Shown here: in pieces, positions 15,621 to 64,000 of the stretch
Layout: the number at the start of each line of letters is the position of its first letter
Numbering within the stretch: position 1 is the stretch's first letter
Sequence record: KX130862
DNA: 64,000 nt
Direction: 5' to 3' (one strand)
Source: Shigella phage SHFML-26
Translations under genes and position numbers: made by a program
Notes under the pieces: generated by a model
Told to the model about the DNA's origin: nothing
The model's database searches: none
Seen by the model: the letters and a program-made list of their open reading frames with translations, nothing else

Positions 15621-15682
15621 ATGAACCTCGTTCAATTAGTGAGATTTCTATTATATACTATCTAAATCTTAAAGTAAACAGG

Positions 15683-15690
15683 TATAAATA
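15683..15690 (+). promoter_or_regulatory. late promoter core TATAAATA upstream of gene 34
   Basis: ggTATAAATActtatt about 35 nt upstream of the gene 34 ATG, followed by AGGAG RBS. Confidence 0.6.
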
Positions 15691-15724
15691 CTTATTATTG
15701 AAAACACAATAGGAGCCCGGGAGA

Positions 15725-18700: not shown

Positions 18701-19594
18701 ACGTCTAGTCATTTTTATTCTCAGCGTAATAAAGCTGGAAATATAACATTTAATATCAACGGTACAGTAACACCGATAAATGTTAATGCTTCAGGAACAT
18801 TGAATGCAAATGGTGTAGCAACATTTGGTAATTCAGTCACTGCAACTGGTGAAATTATTTCTCGAAGCGCAAATGCTTTCCGTGCTATTAACGGAAATTA
18901 TGGTTTCATTGTTCGCAATGATGGGTCAGTAACGAATTTTATGCTTACTGCATCGGGTGATCAAACCGGCGGATTTAATGGATTGCGTCCTTTAGCTATT
19001 AATAATGCATCTGGCCAAGTAACGATTGGTGAAAGCTTAATCATTGCAAAAGGTGCTACTATAAGTTCAGGCGGTTTAACTGTTAACTCGAGAATTCGTT
19101 CTCAGGGTACTAAAACCTCTGATTTATATACCCGTGCGCCAACATCTGATACAGTAGGATTCTGGTCAATCGATATTAATGATTCAGCCACTTATAACCA
19201 GTTCCCGGGTTATTTTAAAATGGTTGAAAAAACTAATGAAGTGACTGGACTTCCATACTTAGAACGCGGTGAAGAAGTTAAATCTCCTGGTACATTGACT
19301 CAGTTTGGTAACACACTTGATTCGCTTTATCAAGATTGGATTACTTATCCAACGACCCCAGAAGCACGTACCACTCGCTGGACACGTACATGGCAGAAAA
19401 CCAAAAACTCTTGGTCAAGTTTTGTTCAGGTATTTGATGGAGGTAACCCTCCTCAACCTTCGGATATAGGAGCAATCCCATCTGATAATGGAATAATAGG
19501 TAATCTTACTATTCGTGATTTCTTACGAATTGGTAATGTTCGCATTATTCCTGACCCAGTGAATAAAACTGTTAAATTTGAATGGGTTGAATAA
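15725..19594 (+). CDS. 34: long tail fibre proximal subunit gp34
   Basis: 1289 aa MAEIKRKFRAEDGLDAGGDKIINVALADRTVG...; internal repeats of the ...TATETRRG(I/V)A(R/E)IAT... type. Confidence 0.95.
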   Translation: MAEIKRKFRAEDGLDAGGDKIINVALADRTVGTDGVNVDYLIQENTVQQYDPTRGYLKDFVIIYNNRFWAATDNIPKPAGNFNRIRWKALRTDAVYTTVSSGPYQLKSGEAISVDTSVGNDIEFTLPPSPLDGETVIIQDIGGKPGINQVKINSSNQSIVNFRGEQVRSVLMTHPKSQMVFIFNNRLWQMYIADYSREAAIVTPSTAYQAQSNDFIVRRFTSAAPINVKLPRFANHGDIINFVDLDKLNPLYHTIVTTYDETTSVQEVGTHSIEGRTSIDGFLMFDDNEKLWRLFDGDSKARLRIITTNSNIRPNEEVMVFGANNGTTQTIELQLPTDISVGDTVKISMNYMRKGQTVKIKAAGEDKIASSVQLLQFPKRSEYPPEAEWVTVQELVFNGETNYVPVLQLAYIEDSDGKCWVVQQNVPTVERVDSLNASTRARLGVIALATQAQANADLENSPQKELAITPETLANRTATETRRGIARIATTAQVNQNTTFSFADDLIITPKKLNERTATETRRGVAEIATQQETNTGTDDTTIITPKKLQARQGSESLSGIVTYVSTAGATPASSRELNGTNVYNKNTNNLVVSPKALDQYKATPTQQGAVILAVESEVIAGQSQEGWANAVVTPETLHKKTSTDGRIGLIEIATQSEVNTGTDYTRAVTPKTLNDRRATESLSGIAEIATQVEFDAGVDDTRISTPLKIKTRFNSTDRTSVVALSGLVESGTLWDHYTLNILEANETQRGTLRVATQVEAAAGTLDNVLITPKKLLGTKSTESQEGVIKVATQSETVTGTSANTAVSPKNLKWIVQSEPTWAATTLIRGFVKTSSGSITFVGNDTVGSTQSLESYEKNGYAVSPYELNRVLANYLPLKAKAVDSNLLDGLDSLQFIRRDIAQTVNGSLTLTQQTNLSAPLVSSSTATFGGSVSANSTLTISNTGTATRLIFEKGPQTGTNPAQTMTVRVWGNQFSGESDTTRSTVFEVSDETSSHFYSQRNKAGNITFNINGTVTPINVNASGTLNANGVATFGNSVTATGEIISRSANAFRAINGNYGFIVRNDGSVTNFMLTASGDQTGGFNGLRPLAINNASGQVTIGESLIIAKGATISSGGLTVNSRIRSQGTKTSDLYTRAPTSDTVGFWSIDINDSATYNQFPGYFKMVEKTNEVTGLPYLERGEEVKSPGTLTQFGNTLDSLYQDWITYPTTPEARTTRWTRTWQKTKNSWSSFVQVFDGGNPPQPSDIGAIPSDNGIIGNLTIRDFLRIGNVRIIPDPVNKTVKFEWVE

Positions 19595-19602
19595 GAGGTA
19601 TT

Positions 19603-20718
19603 ATGGAAAAATTTATGGCAGAGTTTGGACAAGGATATGTCCAAACGCCATTTTTATCGGAAAGCAATTCAGTAAGATATAAAATAAGCATAGCGGGTTC
19701 TTGCCCGCTTTCTACTGCGGGACCATATGTTAAATTTCAGGATAATCCCGTTGGAAATCAAACATTTAGTGCAGGTCTTCATTTAAGAGTTTTTGACCCT
19801 TCTACGGGAGCATTAGTTGATAGTAAGTCATATGCTTTTTCTGCTTCAAACAATACAACATCTGCCGCTTTTGTCAGTTTCATGAATTCTTTGTCAAACA
19901 ATAAACTTGTTGCTATATTAACTAGCGGAAAGGTTAATTTTCCTCCTGAAGTGGTATCTTGGTTAAGGGAAGCAGGAACTTCAGTTTTTCCATCAGATTC
20001 CGTATTGTCAAGATTTGACGTATCATATGCTGCTTTTTACACTTCTTCTAAAAGAGCTATCGCATTAGAGCATGTTAAACTAAGTAATAGAAAAAGCACA
20101 GATGACTATCAAACTATGTTAGATGTTGTATTTGATAGTTTAGAAGACGTTGGAGCGACAGGATTTCCAAAAAGAACTTATGAAAGCGTTGAGCAATTTA
20201 TGTCAGCGGTTGGTGGAACTAATAATGAAATTGTGCGTTTACCAACTTCAGCTGCTATAAGTAAACTTTCTGACTACAATTTAATTCCTGGTGATGTTCT
20301 TTATCTTAAAGCACAGTTATATGCTGATGCTGATTTACTTGATCTTGGAACTGCAAATATATCTATTCGTTTTTATGATGCATCAAATGGATATATTTCC
20401 TCGACCCAAGCTGAGTTTACTGGGCAAGCTGGGTCTTGGGAATTAAAAGAAGATTATGTAGTTGTTCCTGAAAATGCAGTAGGATTTACGATATATGCAC
20501 AGAGAACTGCACAAGCTGGTCAAGGCGGAATGAGGAATTTAAGCTTTTCTGAAGTATCAAGAAATGGCGGCATTTCAAAACCTGCCGAATTTGGCGTCAA
20601 CGGTATTCGCGTTAATTATGTCTGTGAATCGGCTTCACCTCCAGATATAATGGTACTTCCTACACAGGCATCGTCTAAAACTGGTAAAGTGTTTGGACAG
20701 GAATTTAGAGAAGTTTAA
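19603..20718 (+). CDS. 35: long tail fibre hinge connector gp35
   Basis: 371 aa MEKFMAEFGQGYVQTPFLSESNSVRYKISIAG... Confidence 0.9.
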   Translation: MEKFMAEFGQGYVQTPFLSESNSVRYKISIAGSCPLSTAGPYVKFQDNPVGNQTFSAGLHLRVFDPSTGALVDSKSYAFSASNNTTSAAFVSFMNSLSNNKLVAILTSGKVNFPPEVVSWLREAGTSVFPSDSVLSRFDVSYAAFYTSSKRAIALEHVKLSNRKSTDDYQTMLDVVFDSLEDVGATGFPKRTYESVEQFMSAVGGTNNEIVRLPTSAAISKLSDYNLIPGDVLYLKAQLYADADLLDLGTANISIRFYDASNGYISSTQAEFTGQAGSWELKEDYVVVPENAVGFTIYAQRTAQAGQGGMRNLSFSEVSRNGGISKPAEFGVNGIRVNYVCESASPPDIMVLPTQASSKTGKVFGQEFREV

Positions 20719-20721
20719 ACT

Positions 20722-20750
20722 GAGGGAGCCTTCGGGTTCCTTTTTTCTTT
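20722..20750 (+). terminator. putative rho-independent terminator after gene 35
   Basis: gagGGAGCCttcgGGTTCC stem-loop followed by TTTTTTCTTT. Confidence 0.5.
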
Positions 20751-20757
20751 ATAAATA
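20750..20757 (+). promoter_or_regulatory. late promoter core TATAAATA upstream of gene 36
   Basis: ctttaTAAATAatatt about 25 nt upstream of the gene 36 ATG. Confidence 0.6.
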
Positions 20758-20781
20758 ATATTAAAAATAAAGGGGCATACA

Positions 20782-21432
20782 ATGGCTGATTTAAAAGTAG
20801 GTTCAACTGTAGGTGGATCTGTCATTTGGCATCAAGGAAATTTTCCGTTGAATTCAGCCGGTGACGATGTACTCTACAAATCATTTAAAATATATTCAGA
20901 ATATAATAAACCACAGGCAGCTGATAATGATTTCGTTTCTAAATCTACTGGTGGTACTTACACAGGCCCAGTTACTATTAATTATGGTGTAAATAGTTAT
21001 CTTCAATTAAGTAATAATGAAACCCCCATCCGAATTCGTTCTGGTGGCGGCACTGGTAATACTCTTGTAGTTGGTGGCTCTTCTGGCGGTATTAGTTTTA
21101 GACCAGCAGGTAGTGAAATCACTACTGGACAAATTACTATTACGCCAGAAGGTTTGACAACATTTACCAAAGCTGTAACGGCTCCATCTGTAACTGTTAC
21201 ATCTACTCCTTCCGCAGCATCTGATGTTACTCGCAAAGATTATGTTGATGGAGCAATAAATACTGTTACAGCAAATGCAAACTCTAGGGTATTACGCTCT
21301 GGAGACACTATGACAGGAAATTTAACTGCGCCAAACCTTTTTTCGCAGAATCCTGCATCTCAACCTTCACACGTTCCACGATTTGACCAAATCGTAATTA
21401 AGGATTCTGTTCAAGATTTCGGCTATTATTAA
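20782..21432 (+). CDS. 36: long tail fibre distal connector gp36
   Basis: 216 aa [29 protein letters not shown]... Confidence 0.9.
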
Positions 21433-21440
21433 GAGGACTT

Positions 21441-24400
21441 ATGGCTACTTTAAAACAAATACAATTTAAAAGAAGCAAAACTGCAGGTCAACTTCCTGCT
21501 GCTTCAGTATTAGCCGAAGGTGAATTGGCTATTAATTTAAAAGATAAAACAATTTTCACAAAAGATGACTCAGGCAATGTTATAGAATTAGGTTTAAAAT
21601 ATGGAGGAACAATTGATGGTTCTTTAACTGTTAATGGAAATATAATTGGAAATTTAACAGGTAACGCTGCAACTGCAACGAAATTAAAAACAGCACGAAA
21701 AATTAATGGTATATCCTTTGATGGGTCAAAGGATATCACGCTAACTCCATCTGACATAAATGTCAATAGCACAACATTTATAAAAAATAATGGCGAATTA
21801 CCTGTTGATGCTAATTTAGATGAGTATGGGCCTGTTGAAGAATATCTTGGAGTTTGGTCGAAAGCAACTTCAACCAACGCTCAACCAGCAAATAAATTTC
21901 CAGAACAAAATGCTGTAGGTGTGCTAGAAGTATTTGTGGCCGGTCAATTTGCTGGTACTCAGAGATATACAACTAGATACGGAAATGTTTATATTCGTTC
22001 CTTGACTGCTACATGGAACGGAGTAAATGGTCCGTGGAGTGTGTGGCGAAATATTCAATCCGGTACTCGTCCACTGTCAACAACGATTGATCTTAATGAT
22101 CTAGGAGGCGCTGAACACTTTGGTTTGTGGCGAAATAGTTCAAATTCCATTGCTACCTTTGACAGAAATTTCCCAGAAGAAGGATCGTCAGCTCAAGGAC
22201 TTTTAGAAGTATATGAAGGTGGAAACTATTCTCGCACACAGAGATATACGACCAGATTTGGTGTTGTTTATACTCGCTGTCTTACTGCTGCGTGGGATGC
22301 TTCTGCGCCTAAATGGGGACCGTGGCAACAAGTCGGTAATGTCACACCAGCGACTTTTTATGATGGAGATCTGAATGATTTTAAAACTCCTGGGTTATAT
22401 AATATTTTAGGCACTGATGCCGTTATTAATTGTCCTACAGGCGAAGGTTTACCAGCCGTTATTGTTGGTTTGCTGGAAGTTAAACAGCGTGCTTCTGGTG
22501 GTGCTATTTTCCAAAAATTTACTACTGCCGGAACAGGTGCAACTACCCGCGATCGTATTTTTGAGCGCGCATACACCGGCGGTGTTTGGGGTACATGGAA
22601 CGAAGTATATACATCTTACTCTCTTCCAATTACTTTGGGTATGGGTGGTATTAAATCTAACTTAGCAGAGTTAGACTGGCAAGCATTTGATTTTGTTCCT
22701 GGTAGTATGTTTAGCGTTCCTTTGAACAAAATAAAGAACATGCCAGCTAATATGGATTGGGGTACGATTGACGGAAACTTAATTATGTTTTCTGTTGGTC
22801 CTAGCGAGCACACCAGCACAGGACGTACTGTTCAGGTTTGGCGTGGAACTGTATCCCAGACAAACTATCGTTATTTTGTCGTTCGTGTATTCGGTAATCC
22901 AGGGAGTAGAACATGTACAGTTCGACGCGTTGTTCTTGAAGACGGATCACATACTTGGACTGCTAAACAAGATTTTAATGGCGCAGTTAACTTTAACTCT
23001 ACTGTTAACCTTAATAACACTACCACATTTAAAACAGAAGTTAAATTCCGCTCGTTGAATGCATTCCGTATGTATGGCGGAAAATTTGGTACATTTTTAC
23101 GTAATGATGGAGAGAGTCTTTATATTCTTTCCACCGACGAAGATGATCAAGATGGAAACTTTAATACAAATAGACCTTTCCGTTATGAATTAAGAACTGG
23201 TGATGTTACTTTGGGTGGTGTTAGTGGTGCTAACGTTTTAAAATTAAAACGTGATTCTCTCACCGCATTTTTTGGTGGTGATATTAACATGAAAGGCACG
23301 ATGACTTTTGACGCCGGACGTTTAGGATCACGAGATTATTTTAAATTTAACCATTGGGGTGATAGCAATAACGCTCGTGATAACATCATCCAGTTAGAAG
23401 ATAGTCAAGGCGCCCATTTTTCCACTGAACGTACTTTAGCGACAGGTGCAATTAAAACTCGTTTCTTTGGCGAAACATTCACTGATGGTACATTATACCT
23501 AAATCAGATGAATAATAGCTCTGAACGATTCTCTATCAACAATTGGGGAAATTCAGAAGTTGGTCGCGCGGCAGTATTGGAAGTCGGCGATTCAAAAGGT
23601 TATCACTTCTATGCTGAACGCAGGACAGATAACAGTTTGATGTTTGATGTTGCTGGTTCTTTGACCGTGCATGGACCTAGCGGAATAACCATCAAAAACT
23701 CAACTGGTGCACGACATATCTGGTTTAGAGATGATAGCGATGCAGAAAAGGCTGTTATCTGGGCTACAGATGAGGGTATTTTACATATTCGCAATAATCA
23801 TGGGGGTTCATTTAGTCATCACTTCCAGGGTGCAATGATTAAAGTGGGAGAGCGTGTTCCTTATGCCGGAGATCAAGGGCTTATTCGCGGTGAAGTTTCT
23901 GGTGGTGCTTATGTGAATTGGAGAGATCGCCCTGCTGGTTTGTTGCTTGACTGTCAACAAAGCGTTGATAGTGCTCATGCTATTTGGAAAGCGGTTGATT
24001 GGGGGCGTAACTTCATCGCTGCTCTGGACGTTCATTGTCCCGGTGATAGTAATAATACTGCGACAGCGATTCTTCATGTTCAGGCTGCTGATTATCAATT
24101 CCATGCAAATGGGAGCTTTGATGCCAGTGGCAACGGAAACTTTAACGATGTTTATATTCGATCAGACCGTCGCCTTAAAGACAATATAGAAGATTATACC
24201 GGAAATGCGTTAAGTTTGATTGGTAAACTGAAAGTGAAAACTTACGATAAAGTTAAATCTCTTAAGGACCGTGAAATTATCGGTCATGAGATCGGCATTA
24301 TCGCACAGGATTTACAAGAAATATTACCAGAAGCGATTAATATTTCGAAAATTGGCAATCTTGATAAACCAGACGAAGTTCTGACAATTTCTAACTCCGC

Positions 24401-24515
24401 TGTGAATGCTCTTTTAATTAAGGCCATTCAGGAAATGAGTGAAGAAATTAAAGAATTGAAAACGCCTTTCTTCACTAAAATTGCTCGCAAAATTAGTAAA
24501 TATTTTAAATTCTAA
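21441..24515 (+). CDS. 37: long tail fibre distal subunit gp37 with C-terminal intramolecular-chaperone-like domain
   Basis: 1024 aa; N-terminus [13 protein letters not shown]...[11 protein letters not shown] conserved; C-terminus ...[34 protein letters not shown]... resembles self-cleaving chaperone domains of other phage fibres. Confidence 0.9.
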
Positions 24516-24551
24516 CAACAAGGGGGAAATGCCCCCTTTGGAGTATAAATT

Positions 24552-25334
24552 ATGGCAGTAGTTGGAGTTCCTGGCTGGATTGGAAGTTCAGCCGCAAATG
24601 AAACAGGACAACGCTGGATGAGTCAAGCGGCTGGTCAATTAAGATTGGGTGTTCCTTGCTGGATGAGTCAATTTGCAGGTCGCTCACGAGAAATTATTCA
24701 CACGCTTGGAGCAGACCATAACTTCAATGGTCAATGGTTCCGAGATAGATGTTTTGAGGCAGGTAGTGCACCTATAGTGTTTAATATCACTGGAGATTTA
24801 GTATCATATTCTAAAGATGTTCCTTTATTCTTCATGTACGGAGATACACCAAATGAATATGTTCAGTTAAATATACATGGCGTAACGATGTATGGACGTG
24901 GCGGTAATGGTGGTAGCAATAGTCCTGGCTCAGCTGGAGGTCATTGTATTCAAAACGATATTGGTGGGAGACTAAGAATTAATAATGGTGGAGCTATTGC
25001 TGGCGGCGGTGGCGGCGGTGGCGGCGGATATTATTCTCCTTTTTCACGAATGAGATTAACCTTTGGCGGTGGTGGTGGGCGTCCGTTTGGTGCACCTGGC
25101 GGATCTATTGATATGCAATCAGGCGCAACTGCTGGTACTATTTCTGCACCTGGCTCAGGATCCGTGAATGGTATCTATAATGGTGGAAACGGTGGTGAAG
25201 TAGGTTCCGCGGGAGGTAGATGCAATATTCGCGGTCAAGGATCTGAATATAATGGCGGCGCTGCTGGTTATGCTGTCATAGGGTCTGCTCCAACGTGGCA
25301 AAATGTTGGAGCAATATATGGTCCAAGAGTATAA
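24552..25334 (+). CDS. 38: gp38 receptor-recognising adhesin (T2-type, glycine-rich motifs)
   Basis: 260 aa [33 protein letters not shown]... with [11 protein letters not shown] and [14 protein letters not shown] glycine-rich motifs; unlike the short T4 gp38 chaperone. Confidence 0.85.
25002..25028 (+). repeat. (GGC GGC GGT)x3 simple repeat encoding the poly-Gly tract of gp38
   Basis: Direct trinucleotide repeat within gp38 coding sequence. Confidence 0.6.
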
Positions 25335-25364
25335 TGTGAATAAATACCCTTAAAAGGAGGGTCT

Positions 25365-26021
25365 ATGGCAGCACCTAGAATATCATTTTCGCCCTCTGAT
25401 ATTCTATTTGGTGTTCTAGATCGCTTGTTCAAAGATAATGCTACCGGGAAAGTTCTTGCTTCCCGGGTAGCTGTCGTAATTCTTTTGTTTATAATGGCGA
25501 TTGTATGGTATAGGGGAGATAGTTTCTTTGAGTACTATAAGCAATCAAAGTATGAAACATACAGTGAAATTATTGAAAAGGAAAGAAATGCACGCTTTGA
25601 ATCTGTCGCCCTGGAACAACTCCAGATAGTTCATATATCATCTGAGGCAGACTTTAGTGCGGTGTATTCTTTCCGCCCTAAAAACTTAAACTATTTTGTT
25701 GATATTATAGCATATGAAGGAAGATTACCTTCAACAATAACTGAAAAATCACTTGGAGGATATCCTGTTGATAAAACTATGGATGAATATACAGTTCATT
25801 TAAATGGACGTCATTATTATTCCAATTCAAAATTTGCTTTTTTACCAACTAAAAAGCCTACTCCCGAAATAAACTACATGTACAGTTGTCCATATTTTAA
25901 TTTGGATAATATCTATGCTGGAACGATAACCATGTACTGGTATAGAAATGATCATATAAGTAATGACCGCCTTGAATCAATATGTGCTCAGGCGGCCAGA
26001 ATATTAGGAAGGGCTAAATAA
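25365..26021 (+). CDS. t: holin
   Basis: 218 aa MAAPRISFSPSDILFGVLDRLFKDNATGKVLASRVAVVILLFIMAIVWYRGD...; single N-terminal TM segment. Confidence 0.95.
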   Translation: MAAPRISFSPSDILFGVLDRLFKDNATGKVLASRVAVVILLFIMAIVWYRGDSFFEYYKQSKYETYSEIIEKERNARFESVALEQLQIVHISSEADFSAVYSFRPKNLNYFVDIIAYEGRLPSTITEKSLGGYPVDKTMDEYTVHLNGRHYYSNSKFAFLPTKKPTPEINYMYSCPYFNLDNIYAGTITMYWYRNDHISNDRLESICAQAARILGRAK

Positions 26022-26294
26022 TTATTTGTTCGTATACATCTCTAGATATCGATATACACCCTCAAAACCCTCGTTGAATTCGTCGATGAGGGTTTTCTTA
26101 TCTTCTTGAGTTAATTCAGAAACAATTTTACGGAATGAATTCTGATTTAACTTTCTACCTTCATGTGTTACTCCAATCTCATTCAGAAATGCAATAAAAT
26201 TAGCACGATTCTCAACAATATCTTCTCTGGAAAATTTAATCAAAATAGACGCAACAGTAATAATTTCACGAACTGTATCAATATTTTTATTCAT
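26022..26294 (-). CDS. asiA: anti-sigma-70 factor AsiA
   Basis: 90 aa MNKNIDTVREIITVASILIKFSREDIVENRANFIAFLNEIG... Confidence 0.9.
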   Translation of the reverse strand: MNKNIDTVREIITVASILIKFSREDIVENRANFIAFLNEIGVTHEGRKLNQNSFRKIVSELTQEDKKTLIDEFNEGFEGVYRYLEMYTNK

Positions 26295-26306
26295 TAACTA
26301 TACCAC

Positions 26307-26459
26307 TCAATTAGTTGACTTTGTTATAATATCATCAGACGCTTGATTTGTAAACTGGTCTGTGTTATTTTCTTCAAAAATTTTTTCTACGAATTCTTTG
26401 AACGACTCACGTTCCTGAGTTACATTGTGCTCGATTACCATTTCAAGATTATAACTCAT
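26307..26459 (-). CDS. small hypothetical protein (50 aa, acidic)
   Basis: ATG overlaps the stop of the upstream ORF (ATGA); hand-translated, coordinates approximate. Confidence 0.35.
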   Translation of the reverse strand: MSYNLEMVIEHNVTQERESFKEFVEKIFEENNTDQFTNQASDDIITKSTN

Positions 26460-26734
26460 TCGAAATAATCTTCAATTTCGTAATCATGGACATAAATCAT
26501 TATAGTTTCTAATACATCATCAATACTTTTTCCTGGAGCTGGAATTACGTAAAAATATCCTGCTTTTGAGAGGTCTTTATAAGTTCCAACCAAGAAATCA
26601 TTATTCTCAAGATGTAGTTCTTCAACTAATTCATTAACAATTAAGTGGTATAAATTTGGTAGAAACTTATATAGCTTTTCTAGAATATCAATTTTGATTG
26701 TATATTGAACCACAGATTGAGAATCAATAATCAT
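26456..26734 (-). CDS. arn: acidic 92-aa protein, Arn-like (anti-restriction)
   Basis: Size, acidity and position upstream of asiA fit T4 Arn; sequence identity not verifiable from memory. Confidence 0.55.
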   Translation of the reverse strand: MIIDSQSVVQYTIKIDILEKLYKFLPNLYHLIVNELVEELHLENNDFLVGTYKDLSKAGYFYVIPAPGKSIDDVLETIMIYVHDYEIEDYFE

Positions 26735-26817
26735 AGACCTTCCCCTTATGTTTCTGTTTGCGATTAGATTCTTTAAACGCTTTCTTCTTATCCTTATGAA
26801 CAGAAGCTTTATTAAAA

Positions 26818-27036
26818 TTATGTTTTGCGACTAAATTGTTCATAATGCTGAATTACCTCTCTTAAACATTTGCATGTGAATGAAAACTTTTTAGCTACAC
26901 CACATTCAAATATATGTTCTCTTAAATCGCGTGTATCGGTATATCCCATCTCAACGATAAAATGCCGTATTAGATTTTTATCTTTATCGTTGAGAGAATT
27001 AAAATAATCGGATTTTGAATTAATTTCCCTGGCCAA
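26818..27036 (-). CDS. hypothetical protein (72 aa)
   Basis: Track ORF, co-oriented. Confidence 0.45.
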   Translation of the reverse strand: MAREINSKSDYFNSLNDKDKNLIRHFIVEMGYTDTRDLREHIFECGVAKKFSFTCKCLREVIQHYEQFSRKT

Positions 27037-27316
27037 ATTGAATCACCTTCAGTTGACGTTTTAGCTCTTTTATCATCTCTTCGTTCATCGCAATATAAAG
27101 ATCGCGTAAAGCAGGTTTTAGCATTCCATTTACTGGAGAACTAAATGGGCACACATAATCTTTTCCTACAAGCTTTTTAGTTAATTCCATATCACAAAAC
27201 TGAAATGCAGGTTCATTAGCATAAATTCCCCAATTAGTTGACATCATTTTATTGGCATATTCCAATGCTTGGATTTGATTAGTAATTCCATCAATTTGAA
27301 ACTTTTTAATATTCAT
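27020..27316 (-). CDS. hypothetical protein (98 aa)
   Basis: Track ORF, co-oriented. Confidence 0.45.
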   Translation of the reverse strand: MNIKKFQIDGITNQIQALEYANKMMSTNWGIYANEPAFQFCDMELTKKLVGKDYVCPFSSPVNGMLKPALRDLYIAMNEEMIKELKRQLKVIQFGQGN

Positions 27317-27777
27317 TAGTAAAGGTCCTCGGAGTAAAGTTCTTTTTCACTACCACCACGTTCAATACGCACTTGTCCAGCGTAAGTTGCAATAATCATT
27401 GCTTCTTCACGTGTCCAATAATTACTATATTGGTCAATAAACCCTTGGTCATCATCACAAACTTGTTGAGTAACTAATTGAGGTTTAACTACATCTAAAA
27501 CTTCGGCCATATCTTTAGAATAATGACGAGCACCTGGAATAACAAGAGTTCGTCCATCTTTTAATTTAAAACGGTTGGCTGCGCAAACAATTCGTCGTTG
27601 ATACTTTTGGTTTTCATCCCAGTATGCGGTTTGCCAACAGATTTCAGGAACTTCTGCAAGAATATCTTCTTCTGTGCATTTATAACCATGTGCTTTAAAT
27701 TTTTGAACAAGACTCTCCGGAGTCTCACGAGATAAAGGAACATTCAGCATTTTTAAACGATTGATAAATGGGTTCAT
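27316..27777 (-). CDS. hypothetical protein (153 aa)
   Basis: Track ORF, co-oriented; stop/start overlaps with neighbours. Confidence 0.5.
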
Positions 27778-28103
27778 TTAAACCATCCTTTAATACGCTG
27801 CCACAAAGTTTTCTGTTGAGCTTTGTTAACACCAATTGAGCGAATAACTGGTTGAGATTCCTGGAATTCTTTATAATCAGCAAGATAAATTTCATAAGCT
27901 GCATCCGTAAATGAACTTATTGCTGCCATAAAATTATTGCGAATACCTACTGGAGCATCTTTACTTTCACGAATAATCATGTATTTACCAGTCTTAATCT
28001 TTACGATAGTTCCAAGATAAGCTCCATGGTACCAAATATCCCAACCCTCTTGAGTAGGTTCTGCACAACGACGAAGTTCATTGACAATTTCTAACTTGTT
28101 CAT
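27774..28103 (-). CDS. hypothetical protein (109 aa)
   Basis: Track ORF immediately downstream of motA. Confidence 0.5.
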
Positions 28104-28113
28104 TATTTATTCC

Positions 28114-28749
28114 TCACAGTTCAGATGCTACAGTGATTACAGATTCAATGTTTTCTGCCGAGCGTTTAATGTCAAGATACACATTACCGTTTTTAGCGAT
28201 TTTACATGACATTCCGATGTCAGTAAATTTCTGAATATGATGTTCCATCATTTTGTATCCAAAAATTCGCATATTTCCATTGTTGTTAATTTCAAAATTA
28301 CGAATTCCGTGAGTACGTTTTTCTAAAATAGCGAGATAGTTACTACGATAAGTTTCAACCTTTTTAAGAACAAATCCATTTTCATCTAAAAGTTTTAACA
28401 TGAAGTCTTTATCTTCTTCCATATCGGAAGTAATTTCGCGAGCTTTACGAGTTGCTCGTTTTTTCAGCAGTTCCGGAGCGTTTTCCTGTGCGTATAAAGT
28501 TGCTGCATTTGAAATAATATCCTGAGCTTCACCTGTAATGATTAATCCATCACCAGATTTCTCCACCAGGCCTTTTTTAATCAATACCCCAATATTACTA
28601 TTAACTACTGCGTTACCTAAATCTGGATGCACCTCACGAACTTCTGCAGCTGTAATGAAATCTTTCTTAGCAATGGTAATTAAAATCGCAGCAGTTTTTT
28701 CATTCAGAACATCGTTAGAAGCTTTGATGATGTAAGTTACTTTAGACAT
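28114..28749 (-). CDS. motA: middle transcription activator MotA
   Basis: 211 aa MSKVTYIIKASNDVLNEKTAAILITIAKKDFITAAEVREVHPDLGNAV... Confidence 0.9.
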   Translation of the reverse strand: MSKVTYIIKASNDVLNEKTAAILITIAKKDFITAAEVREVHPDLGNAVVNSNIGVLIKKGLVEKSGDGLIITGEAQDIISNAATLYAQENAPELLKKRATRKAREITSDMEEDKDFMLKLLDENGFVLKKVETYRSNYLAILEKRTHGIRNFEINNNGNMRIFGYKMMEHHIQKFTDIGMSCKIAKNGNVYLDIKRSAENIESVITVASEL

Positions 28750-28790
28750 TTTCTAATCTCCGTAATTCTGTATCAGTAGTTGATAGTTGT

Positions 28791-28820
28791 ATAGTACCAC
28801 AGTATGCTTTGGTTGTAAAC
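28791..28820 (-). promoter_or_regulatory. T4-type early promoter upstream of motA
   Basis: Reverse complement contains GTTTACA -35 and TACTAT -10; same conserved motif as at 11768-11797. Confidence 0.5.
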
Positions 28821-28875
28821 CGTTTTGTGAAAAAATTTTTAAAATAAAAAGGGAGAGCCTCGGCTCTCCCTAAAA

Positions 28876-29025
28876 TTACTGCATGACTGTGATAACTGTC
28901 ATGATAACACGTTGAATTCCGAACGCAAGAAGACCTCCTGCTACGGCTGGAACAACACCTAAACCCGCTAGTAAAATGCCACCAGATACTAATGCAGCGC
29001 TTGTAATACCAATGAATGGACTCAT
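28876..29025 (-). CDS. small membrane protein (49 aa, Gly/Ala-rich hydrophobic)
   Basis: MSPFIGITSAALVSGGILLAGLGVVPAVAGGLLAFGIQRVIMTVITVMQ; ATG overlaps gene 52 stop (ATGA). Confidence 0.45.
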   Translation of the reverse strand: MSPFIGITSAALVSGGILLAGLGVVPAVAGGLLAFGIQRVIMTVITVMQ

Positions 29026-30350
29026 TTGATTTCCTCTAAATCTTTGGTGTATTCTGTAACTACATCAGTAGTTTTCCAATATTCGTTTTCTTCTTTTTTA
29101 GCTTTAGCTTCTTCAGCAAGTTTCTTCGCTTCATCGGAGGTCATATGAAAAATATTCATTCCAACTAGTTTATCAACATAAGAAGAATACATATCAATTT
29201 TAGAAAGTTCTTCGGTCAGTTCTTTACGAGTTTTACCCTGTACAACAATTTCACCTGAAATTACTTTCTTAATGAAATGTGCCTTGGCAAAGGCTAAACG
29301 AAAAGCTGACTCAGTTTCTTTAATTTTGTTATCAATTCGTTTTTGGACATAAGTTTTACGAACTTCAACGAAGTCTTTAATTAAATCAACTACGTTATCG
29401 TAAACTTGTAGCTTTCCTTTCTCATTAATAACCGTAATATTCTGAGAACGACGCTCAATCAACCCGAAGTCTTTCATAATTTTTGCATGGCGTTCTTCTT
29501 CGTTATCGCTCAAAGAGTATTCTTTGCGGAATTTAACTTTGAAGCCAAAGCCATGCTCACCACAAGCATCATCCCATGTAATGAAGCCTTTATCTTCAAG
29601 CGGGTCTAAGATTTTACTCACATAAGTTTCACGATCATACTTATATGGAATCTCAGTGATATGCATTTGAGTTCGTGAAGTAAACTTGTATGTTCCACGA
29701 ATTTCATATTGCCCATCAATTTCAACGACTTCACCACGAAATTCTGGGAATTCTACCTTCGGTTTAGTTACTTTCTTTCCTTGAAGAGCTTGCAGTACAG
29801 CTTTCTTGACAGAAGAAACACTATGAGGAAGAATGTAAGTTGCATAACCAGTTGCAATACCGGAAACACCATTAAGAAGAACGGTAGGAATAATAGGCAA
29901 ATAGAAAGCAGGCGGAATGTGTTCTTTATCTTGATGTACTGGAGCATATTCAGTATCTTTATATACGTTATAGAAATTTTTACTTACACGAGCAAAAATA
30001 TAACGACTTGCCGCTGCCTTTTGGACAGTACGAGAACCGAAGTTTCCTTGACCATCTAACAGAGGAAAGTTATTATTCCAAGTGTTAGCCATCAAAGCGC
30101 CTGCGTCTTGTGCAGAGTTTTCGCCATGGTGATATCCGAGGTCCGCTACACCACCTGCAATAGAAGCGAGTTTGTGAAACTTATCTTTATTTCCTCGTGC
30201 CAAATCAAGAGCTCGAGCAATAACAAATCGTTGAACTGGCTTAAATCCATCAATCATATTTGGGATAGCACGATTTTCAACCGTGTACATAGCATAAGCC
30301 AATGCTTCATTATCAATGATACTTTTTAAATCGCGATTATTCAGTTGCAT
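29022..30350 (-). CDS. 52: DNA topoisomerase II medium subunit gp52
   Basis: 442 aa MQLNNRDLKSIIDNEALAYAMYTVENRAIPNMIDGFKPVQRFV... (GyrA-like breakage-reunion domain). Confidence 0.95.
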   Translation of the reverse strand: MQLNNRDLKSIIDNEALAYAMYTVENRAIPNMIDGFKPVQRFVIARALDLARGNKDKFHKLASIAGGVADLGYHHGENSAQDAGALMANTWNNNFPLLDGQGNFGSRTVQKAAASRYIFARVSKNFYNVYKDTEYAPVHQDKEHIPPAFYLPIIPTVLLNGVSGIATGYATYILPHSVSSVKKAVLQALQGKKVTKPKVEFPEFRGEVVEIDGQYEIRGTYKFTSRTQMHITEIPYKYDRETYVSKILDPLEDKGFITWDDACGEHGFGFKVKFRKEYSLSDNEEERHAKIMKDFGLIERRSQNITVINEKGKLQVYDNVVDLIKDFVEVRKTYVQKRIDNKIKETESAFRLAFAKAHFIKKVISGEIVVQGKTRKELTEELSKIDMYSSYVDKLVGMNIFHMTSDEAKKLAEEAKAKKEENEYWKTTDVVTEYTKDLEEIK

Positions 30351-30354
30351 AAAT

Positions 30355-30495
30355 TTACCATACTAGTGAATGTAGTGCCATAATAACATCAGAAATGAAA
30401 AGCACGACTTGAATTAATCCGAACATTACTCCATAATATAGTGCTACCAATAAAGTAGCAAGGGCTAATGAATAGCCCAAGATTTTCTTAATCAT
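30355..30495 (-). CDS. small membrane protein (46 aa)
   Basis: MIKKILGYSLALATLLVALYYGVMFGLIQVVLFISDVIMALHSLVW; start overlaps the ac stop; hand-translated. Confidence 0.4.
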   Translation of the reverse strand: MIKKILGYSLALATLLVALYYGVMFGLIQVVLFISDVIMALHSLVW

Positions 30496-30643
30496 TAGAT
30501 AACAGCACAAATGTTAAATATGCACACATACCCTGGGCTAAAGCCTGCGAAAACACACTACTGGCATCGATACAGATAGTTAAAACACATGCTACTATCC
30601 AACAAATAAATGAAATAACTCCTAATAATTTTGCGATATTCAT
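30488..30643 (-). CDS. ac: small membrane protein (51 aa), Ac-like
   Basis: MNIAKLLGVISFICWIVACVLTICIDASSVFSQALAQGMCAYLTFVLLSND; size and position between stp and 52 fit T4 ac; hand-translated. Confidence 0.45.
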   Translation of the reverse strand: MNIAKLLGVISFICWIVACVLTICIDASSVFSQALAQGMCAYLTFVLLSND

Positions 30644-30653
30644 AGTATTCTCC

Positions 30654-30740
30654 TCAACTATTTTTAAAACCTAAAATACCAAAGTTTTTAAGATTGTCAC
30701 GATAGAACTGCATCACATGTTCGTTATGGAAATTACTCAT
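30654..30740 (-). CDS. stp: Stp peptide
   Basis: 28 aa [28 protein letters not shown], matching the start of T4 Stp as recalled; hand-translated. Confidence 0.7.
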
Positions 30741-31198
30741 TAATATGCCTGCAAAACAAATTTAAAGTTATCAGCCAACATACGGTTTATTTCTTCAAGT
30801 GTTTGATACTCAGAATGATGATTACGAGTAAACGCCAAAGCTAACTGACCTTTACCAAATCCTGTCGTCAGAGGTTTCATCTTAGAAGCAGGCAGATAAA
30901 ATACTGTGTATGGAACATTGTTATTTGCAATAGTACGCGCAAGCTGAGACCGACGCTGACGAATATGACTTAGAACCGCACTGAATCCTTGCTTAGAACG
31001 CTGATTACCTACATAAAATCGTGCAGACACGCACGGATTACTAAATGGACGACCATCTAATTTACTCACTAAAAAGTAAAATCCAGGTTTAGATAAAATA
31101 TCTTTATGCGGAGTTCCCAAAAACCACTCACCGCCCTTGATTGTACCAATAACAGTAGCGCCTGCATTATTCAGATCAGTAACAGTCATATATTTCAT
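30740..31198 (-). CDS. ndd: nucleoid disruption protein Ndd
   Basis: [33 protein letters not shown]...; track ORF trimmed to this Met. Confidence 0.85.
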
Positions 31199-58630: not shown

Positions 58631-59023
58631 TCACTTAGTCAAATTTTTTACGCATGAATTATAAGAATTCACTACATACTCCATCGGAGCATTTTTACCA
58701 GTACGCCATTGGTAATTATTAGCCCAATTAGCCCAAAGTTCGGCACAGTAGTTTTCAATTTTTTCTTCGCGTGTAATTACATCTGAATTACGATACGCTT
58801 GAGCAGATTCATCTGGACGAATAGCTTCGTCAAAATTCGCCTGCATTTGTTCTACTGTCTGTTTTGGAGCCTCTTTATAACACTTAACATTAGGATTATA
58901 AAATTTGCTTGAACAATTTACAATTTTTCCTACATCAGACTGATTTACTACCGGTCCTTGAGCTACACAACCAGTAAGACCTAATGCAATAACCAAAATA
59001 GCGATTTTCATTTTACTCTCCAA
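58631..59023 (-). CDS. putative lipoprotein (130 aa)
   Basis: Signal peptide with lipobox LGLTGC. Confidence 0.5.
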   Translation of the reverse strand: MESKMKIAILVIALGLTGCVAQGPVVNQSDVGKIVNCSSKFYNPNVKCYKEAPKQTVEQMQANFDEAIRPDESAQAYRNSDVITREEKIENYCAELWANWANNYQWRTGKNAPMEYVVNSYNSCVKNLTK

Positions 59024-59195: not shown

Positions 59196-61706
59196 TCAGC
59201 CAAACAGGAAGTCTAACGAAGCTTTTTCTTCATAGTCCATACCTGCCGATTCACACATACCTGCAAGCGGCTTAACAAACGATTTTTGGAACAAAGTTGA
59301 GTAGTCAATCCAAGATAGTACGTCAGAACGAATTTCTTTTGGAAGTTCTGTACCTGATGGCCAAGCAATGCACTTGTCACCAAATGGATTTCCTTCACGT
59401 AATGGAAGAACCATTACTTTATTTCCATCCAAAATTGGAGCTACACCTAAACCACTAACAGCTCGACGATAAGTTAGCACACCACGAATATGGAATGGGC
59501 ATTTAAATCCTGGCCAACCTTTATCATCATATTTCGCTATATCGTTCGCAGTTTTTACTTCAGCAATAACTTTATAGTCAAGTTGACGATATTCTTTCTC
59601 GAAGTTCTTGTAGTATTCTTGGACAGACTCTTCACCTTCCTGAAGAATACGACGAATACTTTCTTCGAGAGCTTCTTGCACCGCTTTTGGTGTTGAACTC
59701 TGCTGAGTTTCCATACCCATGATTTTTAGATGCGGTTCGGCAAATCGCTTATCTTCCATATCATAAACGTTCAGAGCATAACGTTTTTTCGCTTTCCAAA
59801 ATCCACCAACACCCTTTGAACCAAGCGGAGGGCAAGAAATAGCTTCACGGTCCATATGCATCAGATGCTCGCGGTTATTCATATAATCACATAACTCACG
59901 ATATGCAACATCAATCATAGGTTCCATCTTTTTCTTACCAAACTGATTCATGAATTCAACTAAATCATTTTGTTCTTTAAAGCGGTCAAGACCTACTTTT
60001 TCAATTACTTTATCTACACAAACATATACCGAATCAGTATCACCTGCTGCGATGAAATCTTCACCATTAGTTCCACATACTTTATTCAGATATTCATTAA
60101 TTTTGCGAGCAATCCATTGAATACCGACTTGACCGAAAATTGTGATAGCAGTAGCATTTCGCAAATCATAGTAGCGGAAATGAATATTACCAAGAGCACC
60201 ATAAAGACTGTTAATAAGAATTTTACGGTTCAACTGATTTGTGTTAGCAAGTGTAGCAGCTTTTTCACATTCTTCAATCAGACTGTTAAGAACAGATTCG
60301 GTGTAATTCGATAATTCGTTTAAGAAATCATCATTGAACTTAACATATCGTTCAACTTCCGGTTTAGTTGAACAGGACCCTGCGCCTTTCATAATAATCT
60401 TTTTAATAGCTTCGGCATTCATTTCTTCAGCGAACATTTTCTTTTTCCAATCTTTACGCTGGAAAAATACTTTAGCGATTTCCTTTGGAATGATACCTTC
60501 TTGATGCTTATCATACATCCATCCATTCGGAGAACAAGAATATTCATCACTCGGTTTAGGAGCTGTTCCTGCGATATATTCATGAATTGGATGAACTTTA
60601 AACTGCCCACGAATAGTCTCAGGACTAATGTTAACCTGACGAATAATGCTCGGATACAGAGACGTCAAGTCAAAACTCATAATATATCGACGAGCAATTG
60701 GTTTAGGTTCAAATACAAATGCACCCGGAAAACTCTGTTTAACGTGCGAACCTTGTTGAGGAATAACCTTATGTTCACCTTTCAATGAGTTAAAAATAAT
60801 AGCATCCCAAGTTTTAATAGGACTCATTACACCAGAAAAAGGCATTTTAGCATAATAAGACATACTTAAAACTAGATCGATAAACCCGCGAATTTTATCA
60901 ATTGCTTGAACTGATTCTACGTCAATGATGTTATAACTAATGTATCGTTGATGATTAGTCTCACGAAGTTTATTAATAGGACCGTCGTATGGTAATTTAC
61001 CTTTTTTGGTTTCATGTTGAGCAACTGATTCCAAAGAGAATGACGGCAAATTAGTAAATGCGAATTTCTTATACAAATCTAAATAATCAAGAATAGATAC
61101 GCCATCAATAGAATAAATTTCTTTGCTACCGTACATATTTTGAATTAGTTTAGATTTTACCCGACCGATTGGAGAGAAACGTTTCATACTGCGTTCACCT
61201 AGAATCATTTTAACGCGATTCATAATATATGGAACGTCAAACCCCTCAATATTCCAACCAGTAAAAATAGCAGGTCGTTTCTGTTCCCAGAGATTGATAT
61301 ATTCCATGAGCATATCACGCTCATTATCGAATGGCATATAAATTACTCGGTCAAGAATTTCTTGAGGAACTTCATCACCACCTTCACAGTCAAGCTTAGC
61401 AGCTAACTTTGCATCCCATTTTGATACTGAACCGTACATTGAATTCAAAAGGTCGAAAACATAAAAACGATCATCAATTGAATCGTAATGAGTGATAGCA
61501 TCAATTTCATATTCAGCTTTCATTGGGTCAGGAAATTTATCACCAGTAACCTCAATGTCACAGTTAGCTACACGAACAAATTTTCGGTCATAAACAATTT
61601 CTGAACCATACGTATCACTGATATAAGCGAGTTTAAAATCGTTCATACCGAGAGCTTCGAGACCGATGTCTTCCATTCGTTTCATCCAATCTCGAGCATA
61701 TTTCAT
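59196..61706 (-). CDS. 43: DNA polymerase gp43 (ORF as called; canonical N-terminal ~63 codons lie upstream and are interrupted)
   Basis: 836-aa family-B polymerase starting MKYARDWMKRMEDIGLEALGMNDFKLAY..., corresponding to T4 gp43 from about residue 63. Confidence 0.9.
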   Translation of the reverse strand: MKYARDWMKRMEDIGLEALGMNDFKLAYISDTYGSEIVYDRKFVRVANCDIEVTGDKFPDPMKAEYEIDAITHYDSIDDRFYVFDLLNSMYGSVSKWDAKLAAKLDCEGGDEVPQEILDRVIYMPFDNERDMLMEYINLWEQKRPAIFTGWNIEGFDVPYIMNRVKMILGERSMKRFSPIGRVKSKLIQNMYGSKEIYSIDGVSILDYLDLYKKFAFTNLPSFSLESVAQHETKKGKLPYDGPINKLRETNHQRYISYNIIDVESVQAIDKIRGFIDLVLSMSYYAKMPFSGVMSPIKTWDAIIFNSLKGEHKVIPQQGSHVKQSFPGAFVFEPKPIARRYIMSFDLTSLYPSIIRQVNISPETIRGQFKVHPIHEYIAGTAPKPSDEYSCSPNGWMYDKHQEGIIPKEIAKVFFQRKDWKKKMFAEEMNAEAIKKIIMKGAGSCSTKPEVERYVKFNDDFLNELSNYTESVLNSLIEECEKAATLANTNQLNRKILINSLYGALGNIHFRYYDLRNATAITIFGQVGIQWIARKINEYLNKVCGTNGEDFIAAGDTDSVYVCVDKVIEKVGLDRFKEQNDLVEFMNQFGKKKMEPMIDVAYRELCDYMNNREHLMHMDREAISCPPLGSKGVGGFWKAKKRYALNVYDMEDKRFAEPHLKIMGMETQQSSTPKAVQEALEESIRRILQEGEESVQEYYKNFEKEYRQLDYKVIAEVKTANDIAKYDDKGWPGFKCPFHIRGVLTYRRAVSGLGVAPILDGNKVMVLPLREGNPFGDKCIAWPSGTELPKEIRSDVLSWIDYSTLFQKSFVKPLAGMCESAGMDYEEKASLDFLFG

Positions 61707-61895
61707 TGATGGTAAATTTTTGAGGTAGCGCTAGTTTTTACCATAGATGTCTTTGTACTTTGACTCTTCCTTACAATGCCTAAACATAGTTGGAAGATAT
61801 TCTACTTCACGAGTACGTTCCTTTCCGTTTTCATCAATATAACGTTCAACAATGTTATTTCCGACTGTTTCAATAGAGATATAAAATTCTTTCAT
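61707..61895 (-). other. 43: interrupted 5' segment of gene 43 (54 codons, TAG, 8 codons, in frame with the main ORF)
   Basis: Reverse complement encodes [65 protein letters not shown]; coordinates approximate. Confidence 0.6.
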
Positions 61896-61953
61896 AGATA
61901 TTCCTTAGTTTATAGCCCGAGTTATTAGGCTCTTGATATATTATACTCCAAAT

Positions 61954-61971
61954 AAGGGGCCGAAGCCCCTT
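61954..61971 (-). other. RNA stem-loop (UUCG loop) upstream of gene 43
   Basis: aaGGGGCcgaaGCCCCtt palindrome about 60 nt upstream of the MKEFYISIE start. Confidence 0.45.
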
Positions 61972-61973
61972 GC

Positions 61974-62195
61974 TTAAATTAGTACTATTTGTCGGTGAAA
62001 AATTGTCATTCCATCTGCATTAATTGACTTAACGACCGCAGTAAAGTGTTTTTGTTCTGGGTGAATTAATTTTTGAAATTCTACCTGAAATTTTAGTTGA
62101 AGGTTTTCTGGTAAATCGAAAAGTGTTTCTGTTGCAGAAAGATTATATTTTTCTTTAAGAGACGCCATGTATTCTTGTGGAGTTATAGCAGTCAT
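61974..62195 (-). CDS. small hypothetical protein (73 aa) between regA remnant and gene 43
   Basis: MTAITPQEYMASLKEKYNLSATETLFDLPENLQLKFQ...; ATG 2 nt after the regA-frame stop; does not resemble gp62 as recalled. Confidence 0.4.
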   Translation of the reverse strand: MTAITPQEYMASLKEKYNLSATETLFDLPENLQLKFQVEFQKLIHPEQKHFTAVVKSINADGMTIFHRQIVLI

Positions 62196-62196
62196 A

Positions 62197-62976
62197 TTAA
62201 TTACCAATCGTATATTTAGGAACGAGTTTCCATTCATGCTTTTGTTTAAAAGAAATAACTCGGAAGTTATTAGTTAAATCTTTCATAAAAGTTCTTTGAC
62301 CAGGAACGATTTCAATCAGTCCCCAATCTTCTAATAGCCATGCAATCGAATCACGACGAACTTCATCTTCTTCTGTCATTTCAACTTGGCGACCATCCAT
62401 ACGAAGCATTTCTTTAAAATGAACGATATAGTGCTTGCAGATTTCAGTCAATCGACGAATCATCTGCTTCATCATTTCAATTTTATCTTCATCGGTCGGT
62501 TGACCGAACGTAATAACTCGGCAGCGTGACTGAAGTGGTTTAATAATACCATCAATATTATTAGCAGTAATAATAATACTGCAGTTTGAACTATAAGCTT
62601 CCATAAAGGAACGAAGATGTCGCTGAGACTCTGCTAACCCTGAGCGGTCAAATTCATCAATAACGATTACTTTTTGACGACCATCAAATGAAGCTGCACT
62701 AGCAAAATTAGTCAAAGGACCACGAACGAAATCAATTTTACAGTCTGATCCATTCACAAACATCATATCAGCATTTACATCATGACACAATGCTTTTGCT
62801 ACAGTTGTTTTACCTGTTCCTGGAGAAGGAGAATGAAGAATAATATGTGGAATTTTACCTTTACTTGTAATAGATTTAAAGGTTTCTTTATCAAAGGCGG
62901 GAAGAATACATTCATCGATAGTAGATGGACGATATTTCTGTTCAAGAATGTGTTCTTTTTCATTTACAGTAATCAT
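62197..62976 (-). CDS. 44: in-frame fusion ORF: clamp-loader gp44 N-terminal ~185 aa joined to RegA C-terminal ~76 aa
   Basis: MITVNEKEHILEQKYRP...SPSPGTGKTT...DEFD...SRC...MIRRLTEICKH then YIVHFKEMLRMDGRQVEMTEEDEV...KYTIGN without a stop. Confidence 0.8.
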   Translation of the reverse strand: MITVNEKEHILEQKYRPSTIDECILPAFDKETFKSITSKGKIPHIILHSPSPGTGKTTVAKALCHDVNADMMFVNGSDCKIDFVRGPLTNFASAASFDGRQKVIVIDEFDRSGLAESQRHLRSFMEAYSSNCSIIITANNIDGIIKPLQSRCRVITFGQPTDEDKIEMMKQMIRRLTEICKHYIVHFKEMLRMDGRQVEMTEEDEVRRDSIAWLLEDWGLIEIVPGQRTFMKDLTNNFRVISFKQKHEWKLVPKYTIGN

Positions 62977-63008
62977 AATTTCCTCATTCAAGTTTTAGTG
63001 TAAATTAT

Positions 63009-63026
63009 AAAGGGCCGAAGCCCTTT
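63009..63026 (-). other. RNA stem-loop (UUCG loop) between genes 45 and 44
   Basis: aaaGGGCcgaaGCCCttt palindrome. Confidence 0.45.
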
Positions 63027-63027
63027 A

Positions 63028-63714
63028 TTAAAAATCGTGGGTAGAATCAGCTTCAAGAGCTACTACATAATTCGCATGTTCACCTTCAAATTTAGCAGCA
63101 CCTTGTTTACCTTTTGCCCAGAGCAGAAGTTTATAATTTCCTGGTTGCATTTTCATATTTGCCATGTTGATAATGAAATTAAATGTATTTTCACCATCAT
63201 AATCACCAAGAGTCAAAGAATATTTAACACGGGTCAAAGCAGAATCTTCTACTTTATTAAAACCGTTAATTACGATTTTACCTTCTTTTACTGTGATAGC
63301 AATTGTATCAATCTGCAGACCACGAGATACACGCAACAGCTGTTGAAGGTCTTCAGCTTTAATTTCAGTAACAACAGATGCTACCGGGAATGGAATTGGT
63401 TTATTAGGAGCAACTACTGTGCTCGGATCAGCTGCTGGCCAAAAAATTGTTGAACGAGCATCAGCAATTTTAATATTTCCATCTTCTGACTGGGAAATTT
63501 CTGCATCGTCATTAACTAGGGACAGAATACCGAGAAAACCGTTCAAATCGTAAATTGCTACATCAAAATCAATAGTGTCAGAAATATTTGCTTCCGCATA
63601 AGTTGTACCATTAACTGCGCGAGTCATAATAAATTGACCAGATTTAAGCATAATGCCAGAGTTAATAGTAGCGAAATTTTTAAGCAGAGCAGTAGTATCT
63701 TTAGACAGTTTCAT
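63028..63714 (-). CDS. 45: sliding clamp gp45
   Basis: 228 aa MKLSKDTTALLKNFATINSGIMLKSGQFIMTRAVNGTTYAEANISDTIDFD... Confidence 0.95.
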   Translation of the reverse strand: MKLSKDTTALLKNFATINSGIMLKSGQFIMTRAVNGTTYAEANISDTIDFDVAIYDLNGFLGILSLVNDDAEISQSEDGNIKIADARSTIFWPAADPSTVVAPNKPIPFPVASVVTEIKAEDLQQLLRVSRGLQIDTIAITVKEGKIVINGFNKVEDSALTRVKYSLTLGDYDGENTFNFIINMANMKMQPGNYKLLLWAKGKQGAAKFEGEHANYVVALEADSTHDF

Positions 63715-63768: not shown

Positions 63769-64000
63769 ATTAACGATTAAAATCGGCAGCAATTGTTTCC
63801 GCAACAATTTGAGCAGCAACAATTAGACGTTCATCTGCATTACCACAATAATCATCTTCAAGACGTTCACCACATGAAGTCATAATAAATTTAGCACCAG
63901 CATTTAGAGATTCTGTAGTATGTTTGCGCATTAGTTCAATCCATTTATTACTTACTTCACGATCGATAGCTTCATAATACGCATGACGAGCAGGTGCAGA
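63769..64000 (-). CDS. hypothetical protein, N-terminus beyond window end (RpbA position)
   Basis: Open frame from 64000 to stop at 63769-63771 ending ...[17 protein letters not shown]; upstream of gene 45. Confidence 0.4.

Follow-up and report, generated by a model that had tools for sequence, protein, structure and literature searches.

The replication gene cluster of Shigella phage SHFML-26 (sequence record KX130862) very probably carries a private, very recent loss-of-function deletion in an otherwise ordinary Tequatrovirus genome, as opposed to a natural gene arrangement or a functional gene fusion. The DNA analysed here is a stretch of 64,000 nt (hereafter, the window), that is, 64 kb of the approximately 168 kb genome, and the searches for relocated genes described below cover these 64 kb. 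The initial annotation flagged an open reading frame (ORF) at positions 62197-62991 of the minus strand, which is indeed present in the ORF list, as the N-terminus of the clamp-loader subunit gp44 fused in frame to the C-terminus of RegA. The TTG start given for this ORF in the list is mechanical and is not the real one; the start is the ATG at 62974-62976, downstream of the native GAGGAAATT ribosome-binding site, and the product is 259 aa long. Both the PDB and the Pfam matches confirmed the fusion, with the lengths of its two parts corrected from about 185 and about 76 aa to 182 and 77 aa, respectively.

Residues 1-182 of the chimera are 100% identical to gp44 of the T4 gp44/gp62 clamp loader (PDB 3U5Z, 3U60 and 8UNF; chains 8UNF_E and 3U5Z_B), and the C-terminal portion matches the RegA structure 1REG. 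In the Pfam search, the AAA domain (PF00004) was detected with E=1.9e-17, with the Walker A motif, the Walker B motif (DEFD) and the SRC arginine finger all retained, and the Translat_reg domain (PF01818) was detected in the C-terminal part, in which RegA residues 46-122 show 98.7% identity to the RegA protein of phage HP3. The gp44 lid (PF21328) is represented in the chimera by just 27 of its 63 positions, below the cut-off, and the Gp44_C collar domain (PF21429) was not found in it by Pfam, whereas intact relatives contain both the lid and the collar. There is no full-length, free-standing RegA of about 122 aa with a start of its own, only residues 46-122 as the tail of a gp44 fragment. Judging by the domain content, the predicted protein is neither a complete gp44, given that it has no collar and no gp62 partner, nor a complete RegA.

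Comparison with related phages accounts for the chimera by a deletion of 1,115 bp that keeps the reading frame, in line with the loss of about 1.1 kb proposed at the outset (Table 1). In the alignments to HP3 and D5505, the break falls between codon 182 of gene 44 and codon 45/46 of regA (positions 2169|3285 of the HP3 locus, equivalent to window positions 62432/62431), and the position of the break in the window is the same in comparisons with all 12 relatives. The junction codon, CAC, consists of CA from codon 182 of gene 44 and C from codon 45 of regA, and the frame is preserved because 1,115, which equals 2 modulo 3, offsets the frame difference between gene 44 and regA. Compared with the T4 gp44/gp62 clamp loader, SHFML-26 lacks gp44 residues 183-319, which comprise most of the lid and the entire collar, and all 187 codons of gene 62; RegA residues 1-45 are lost as well. 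The SHFML-26 locus is 1,115 bp shorter than that of every relative examined, and about 500 Tequatrovirus records align to window positions 61650-63100 as two pieces, with 2,563 bp in those genomes versus 1,451 bp here. The distance from the gene 45 stop to the gene 43 start, originally put at about 1.13 kb, measures 1,133 bp.

The missing material is not found elsewhere in the window. When HP3 gp44, gp62 and RegA were used as tblastn queries, gp62, the C-terminal part of gp44 and the N-terminal part of RegA were absent from the rest of the 64 kb; the gp62 query (the PF16790 partner) had no hit in the window with an E-value below 1.2, so the reported lack of gene 62 at this locus extends to all 64 kb. 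Nor was the deleted DNA relocated within the 64-kb window, as assessed with blastn. Repeat-mediated deletion was considered and rejected given that the flanks share only 1 nt. This minimal microhomology together with the lack of filler bases suggests that the ends were joined by an illegitimate, homology-independent event.

Table 1 Coordinates of the features discussed, in window numbering
Feature	Position	Strand	Basis
nrdA, in which codon 357 (6138-6140) is a private ochre, GAA>TAA	4944..7208	-	Protein-level sweep with annotated D5505 homologues
Gene 43 (DNA polymerase), divided between ORFs of 54 codons (61731-61895) and 836 codons (59196-61706)	59196..61895	-	
Private patch of lesions in gene 43: insertion of a single A at three sites, and GAT>TAT (G>T)	61700..61735	-	
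Region upstream of gene 43: GC-rich hairpin and gene 43 leader, identical to HP3	61896..61973	-	
ORF43.1 (73 aa; PF25760, Phage_RB18_ORF43), intact, 100% identical to the HP3 copy	61974..62195	-	
Chimeric ORF gp44(1-182)::RegA(46-122), 259 aa and stop	62197..62976	-	Native gene 44 start; ORF list, Pfam, PDB match
regA part: codons 46-122 and TAA stop, with neither its own start codon nor its own ribosome-binding site	62197..62431	-	
Deletion junction: 1,115 bp missing compared with HP3 and D5505, 1 nt (A) of microhomology, no inserted bases	62431..62432	.	Base-level alignment
Codons 1-182 of gene 44, encoding the AAA+ module (Walker A, GTGKT; DEFD; SRC) and the first 27 of 63 lid positions	62433..62976	-	Pfam, PDB
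Intact gene 45, encoding the sliding clamp; Pfam detects both clamp domains	63028..63714	-	

The surroundings of the deletion are those of a canonical Tequatrovirus 45-44-62-regA-43 locus: gene 45 is adjacent, the intergenic hairpin is retained, and translation of gene 44 starts at the same point, with signals identical to those of the relatives. Farther downstream, ORF43.1 and the gene 43 leader match those of HP3. ORF43.1, which sits between regA and gene 43 and was overlooked in the initial annotation, as were the gene 43 and nrdA lesions described below, is present in HP3, D5505 and three further relatives; others have a gap of about 78 nt instead. The region immediately upstream of gene 43 presumably holds the gp43 translational operator. 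A scan of the locus for promoters and terminators yielded no more sites than shuffled sequence did. Downstream of gene 43, a 78-aa ORF of D5505 (L002 23025-23261) is missing from the window (58998-59011 vs L002 23014-23248); the aligned flanks of the missing segment share a 14-nt overlap, suggestive of a natural indel bounded by a repeat. On the other side of the locus, at window positions 63944-63967, TTTATTACTTACTTCACGATCGAT, the Cas12a target used to build the T4 deletion strain T4del (PMC8121543), is exactly conserved.

The short form of the locus was not encountered in any other genome. None of the 501 Tequatrovirus phage records has a single place covering the junction; the 29-mer spanning it has no exact match in IMG/VR, GTDB genomes or JGI metagenomes; and complete E. 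coli genomes and PLSDB plasmids gave no match of any kind. At the protein level, the exact chimera is missing from an index of 153 billion genes, and a search of a collection of 5.8 billion proteins with an 80-aa junction peptide retrieved only ordinary 122-aa RegA and one gp44 fragment, with no protein containing the two halves. The gp45 protein encoded in the window is a common one (1,146 blocks in public data), and the 10 genome and metagenome contexts that were read around an identical gp45 all contain the full-length set, namely, gene 44 (319 aa), gene 62 (187 aa), regA (122 aa) and gene 43 (898 aa). Thus, gp62 is kept as the downstream gene in 10 of 10 relative contexts, in contrast to the SHFML-26 window. 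A short gp44 with this C-terminus as the normal state in relatives, which would have refuted the initial reading, did not emerge from these searches of phage records, E. coli genomes, plasmids, contigs and proteins. Given that the architecture does not recur in relatives, it does not appear to be an evolutionarily maintained natural gene fusion.

The window contains two more private lesions. About 700 bp from the deletion, a 36-nt patch of gene 43 reads AACT[A]GCGCT[A]CCTCAAAAATTT[A]CCATCAATGAAA[T]ATGCT, with the inserted and substituted bases in single brackets; it creates an in-frame TAG at codon 55, restores the overall frame with one codon added, and generates a perfect palindrome, TAGCGCTA, with AGCGCT inside. 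This patch was found in none of the 12 relatives, nor in the viral, genome or metagenome contig collections, and copying from an ectopic donor was dismissed given that there is no donor sequence in the window. Gene 43 is naturally split in some distant T4-related phages. A natural split was rejected in the case of SHFML-26, where codon 55 gains no more than 3 nt and the gene is intact in all close relatives. The second lesion, an ochre codon absent from all 446 phage records compared, divides the large ribonucleotide reductase subunit, NrdA, inside its barrel domain.

Should the genome exist as written, the chimera would be made from the native translation signals of gene 44 and, as its domain content indicates, would keep the ATP-binding AAA+ module without most of the lid and without the whole collar that holds the pentamer. 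The clamp loader of T4 has a 4:1 pentamer architecture (PMC8121543); no such pentamer, and hence no clamp loader, would be expected to form because the chimera lacks the collar and the clasp subunit gp62 is gone. The RegA fragment would probably be inactive, and translational repression of early mRNAs should be lost because the first 45 residues are missing. Together, the deletion, the TAG and indel cluster in gene 43 and the nrdA ochre imply that the genome should be DNA-synthesis negative. It would multiply only with proteins supplied in trans, whether by a helper or co-infecting phage or by a complementing or suppressor host, unless the lesions exist solely in the record; T4 lacking genes 45, 44 and 62 needs a helper plasmid in its host cells to propagate (PMC8121543).

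A viable natural variant would have to rely either on a functional chimera or on a clamp loader and RegA encoded elsewhere, in the other approximately 100 kb. The intact AAA+ module, with its Walker A, Walker B and SRC motifs, and the extent of the window, only 64 kb of the genome, would be compatible with this scenario, but the collar and gp62 are absent, gene 43 is stopped as well, none of the approximately 500 related genomes places these genes elsewhere, and T4 without genes 44 and 62 fails to propagate (PMC8121543). In view of the private knock-outs of gene 43 and nrdA, we consider a viable variant very unlikely indeed.

The window otherwise resembles a normal mosaic relative of D5505, with 96.6% identity over 25 kb. 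In a protein-level sweep of the 64 kb, no D5505 homologue was found to be interrupted apart from those affected by the deletion and the gene 43 and nrdA lesions, and the other indels compared with D5505 are located in intergenic or visibly divergent mosaic segments, with the exception of a 1-nt change near the end of a small ORF. The latter is a 1-nt deletion at about position 53126 that, in the comparison with D5505 alone, alters the end of an 85-aa ORF (...FVTCDYAEVLK in D5505 vs ...FVTCDLQKF here) and may be an ordinary polymorphism; 2 nt are missing at 53074, in the spacer downstream of this ORF. Compared with the 12 relatives, there are no private substitutions in gene 45 or in the gene 44 part, and only six private SNPs in gene 43 outside the lesion patch. 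We therefore rejected generally poor sequence as an explanation, given that no further homologue is interrupted and that neither gene 45 nor the gene 44 part has a private site.

The codon differences from D5505 are overwhelmingly synonymous: the ratios of synonymous to non-synonymous differences are 79:4 for gene 43, 9:0 for the gp44 part, 5:0 for the RegA part and 16:4 for gene 45. Thus, these genes were under full selection until essentially the time when the lesions arose, and the surviving codons bear the marks of strong purifying selection. A long-decayed pseudogene is contradicted by this synonymous excess and by the zero private sites in the gp44 part. The pattern fits a very recent mutational, engineered or record-only event, and not slow pseudogene decay or noisy sequencing.

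Several other features of the window were noted. Three ORFs that look like mobile endonuclease genes lie in places with no D5505 alignment: an HNH_3 ORF inside the split nrdB (2676-3485), an HNH/NUMOD3 ORF between nrdB and nrdA (4303-4944), and a 210-aa ORF without a Pfam match between genes 32 and 59 (12825-13457). The proximal long tail fibre protein gp34 is annotated as two CDS in D5505 (L013 21046-24970) vs one intact 1,289-aa ORF in the window (15725-19594), so that this interruption belongs to D5505 and not to SHFML-26. A metagenomic scaffold (ENA ERZ28651243, scaffold_102) encodes an identical 1,024-aa gp37 and aligns to window positions 14825-30828; the scaffold does not extend to the 43-45 locus. 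The scaffold is 99.5% identical to the window over about 10 kb and 97.0% identical over the remaining 5.6 kb; given this drop in identity, it does not come from the same strain, and the pattern illustrates the mosaic ancestry of SHFML-26. A 31-mer spanning strain-specific SNPs of gene 43 was not found in IMG/VR.

If the allele is private and non-functional, as we favour, it either exists in real DNA, from a defective or engineered phage, or is a fault of the record, and we regard these two possibilities as roughly evenly balanced. Under the second, the lesions in 44-62-regA, gene 43 and nrdA would be absent from the phage DNA and would all have entered the sequence during assembly, closure of gaps, consensus calling or manual editing, or through some later alteration. 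This is quite possible, if somewhat short of probable. All three lesions are private to the SHFML-26 sequence; loss of the genes hit should be lethal or costly, yet the surviving codons look freshly selected; and three spaced 1-nt insertions plus a substitution that, within 36 nt, restore the frame would be an odd natural mutation. Against this, the rest of the 64 kb shows no poor base-calling and no stray frameshifts, and an assembler based on a k-mer graph needs junction-spanning reads to join flanks that share only 1 nt. With so little sequence in common between the two sides, a de Bruijn mis-join is unlikely, which argues against a routine assembly error and leaves bad gap closure, an edit or later alteration as the possible routes. 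The initial annotation had listed a defective, engineered, mis-assembled or compensated genome as the possible origins; this list is narrowed here, with poor quality removed, a de Bruijn mis-join made unlikely and no compensation detected in the window.

Classical DNA-negative conditional-lethal mutants of T4 lie in genes 43, 44 and 62, and there are regA mutants, too. The same genes are hit in SHFML-26, and the in-frame TAG in gene 43 might in principle be suppressible; unlike in those mutants, the 44-62-regA lesion is a non-conditional deletion, and gene 43 carries a multi-site indel cluster and not a single base change. A replication-deficient strain obtained by deliberate engineering or by selection in the laboratory and propagated on a complementing or suppressor host, comparable to T4del or to DNA-negative regA- overproducers of early proteins, would have precedents: T4 clamp-loader deletions exist and are maintained on helper plasmids (PMC8121543). 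Moreover, all three lesions affect DNA-synthesis functions, the in-frame amber and the perfect palindrome TAGCGCTA (with AGCGCT) in gene 43 resemble a designed edit, and the deletion is in frame, an outcome that is one in three for a random deletion and mildly favours design or selection.

The engineered deletion strain T4del (Subramanian et al. 2021, eLife, PMC8121543) resembles SHFML-26 in being a T4-type phage without a functional clamp loader, with the genes expected to be provided in trans. In T4del, a Cas12a site, TTTACCGGGAGGAAGATATAGCAC, stands in place of the cleanly deleted genes 45, 44 and 62. In SHFML-26, unlike T4del, gene 45 is intact, regA is truncated as well, there is no inserted site, the deletion ends lie inside codons, and the backbone is not that of T4; TTTACCGGGAGGAAGATATAGCAC is absent from the window even when up to 3 mismatches are allowed. 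Identity with the published strain is rejected on account of the intact gene 45, the missing TTTACCGGGAGGAAGATATAGCAC and the lack of inserted bases at the junction. Engineering in general is rather unlikely on similar grounds: the backbone, a wild-type-like mosaic, shares about 96.6% identity with D5505 and is not T4, the junction carries no scar or cassette, the ends fall mid-domain and not at gene boundaries, and the nrdA ochre has no obvious design purpose. A search of the literature for deletions of 44-62-regA yielded just reviews and the T4del paper, with no matching strain.

Real DNA might also come from a natural, helper-dependent 'cheater' genome that has shed the polymerase, the clamp loader, RegA and NrdA and uses the replication proteins of co-infecting T4-like phages. 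All the functions lost through the three lesions are diffusible and trans-acting, the window has intact structural, packaging-independent and regulatory genes, and mixtures of T4-like phages co-occur in metagenomes, as exemplified by the scaffold with the identical gp37. However, none of the three lesions was seen a second time in the collections searched, a defective lineage must be the majority to become the consensus, and a deletion of 1.1 kb would be expected to give no packaging or replication advantage to a phage that packages DNA by the headful. We consider such an origin distinctly improbable.

The components involved are the well-known T4 proteins gp44, RegA and gp43, with gp62 absent, and there is no new kind of system or protein here. 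The main value of the finding is that of a quality flag: the genome as written has no clamp loader, and its DNA polymerase and NrdA are both broken. The SHFML-26 record is therefore unfit as a reference, for comparison of gene content, or as proof that T4-like phages can dispense with gp62. Automatic annotation would probably label the chimera as 'AAA family ATPase' or 'translation repressor' and so hide the defect. If all three lesions are real in a lysate or a metagenome, SHFML-26 would count among the rare sequenced cases of replication-defective T-even genomes sustained by complementation, a matter of moderate interest to the study of phage social evolution and of relevance to quality control in phage therapy.
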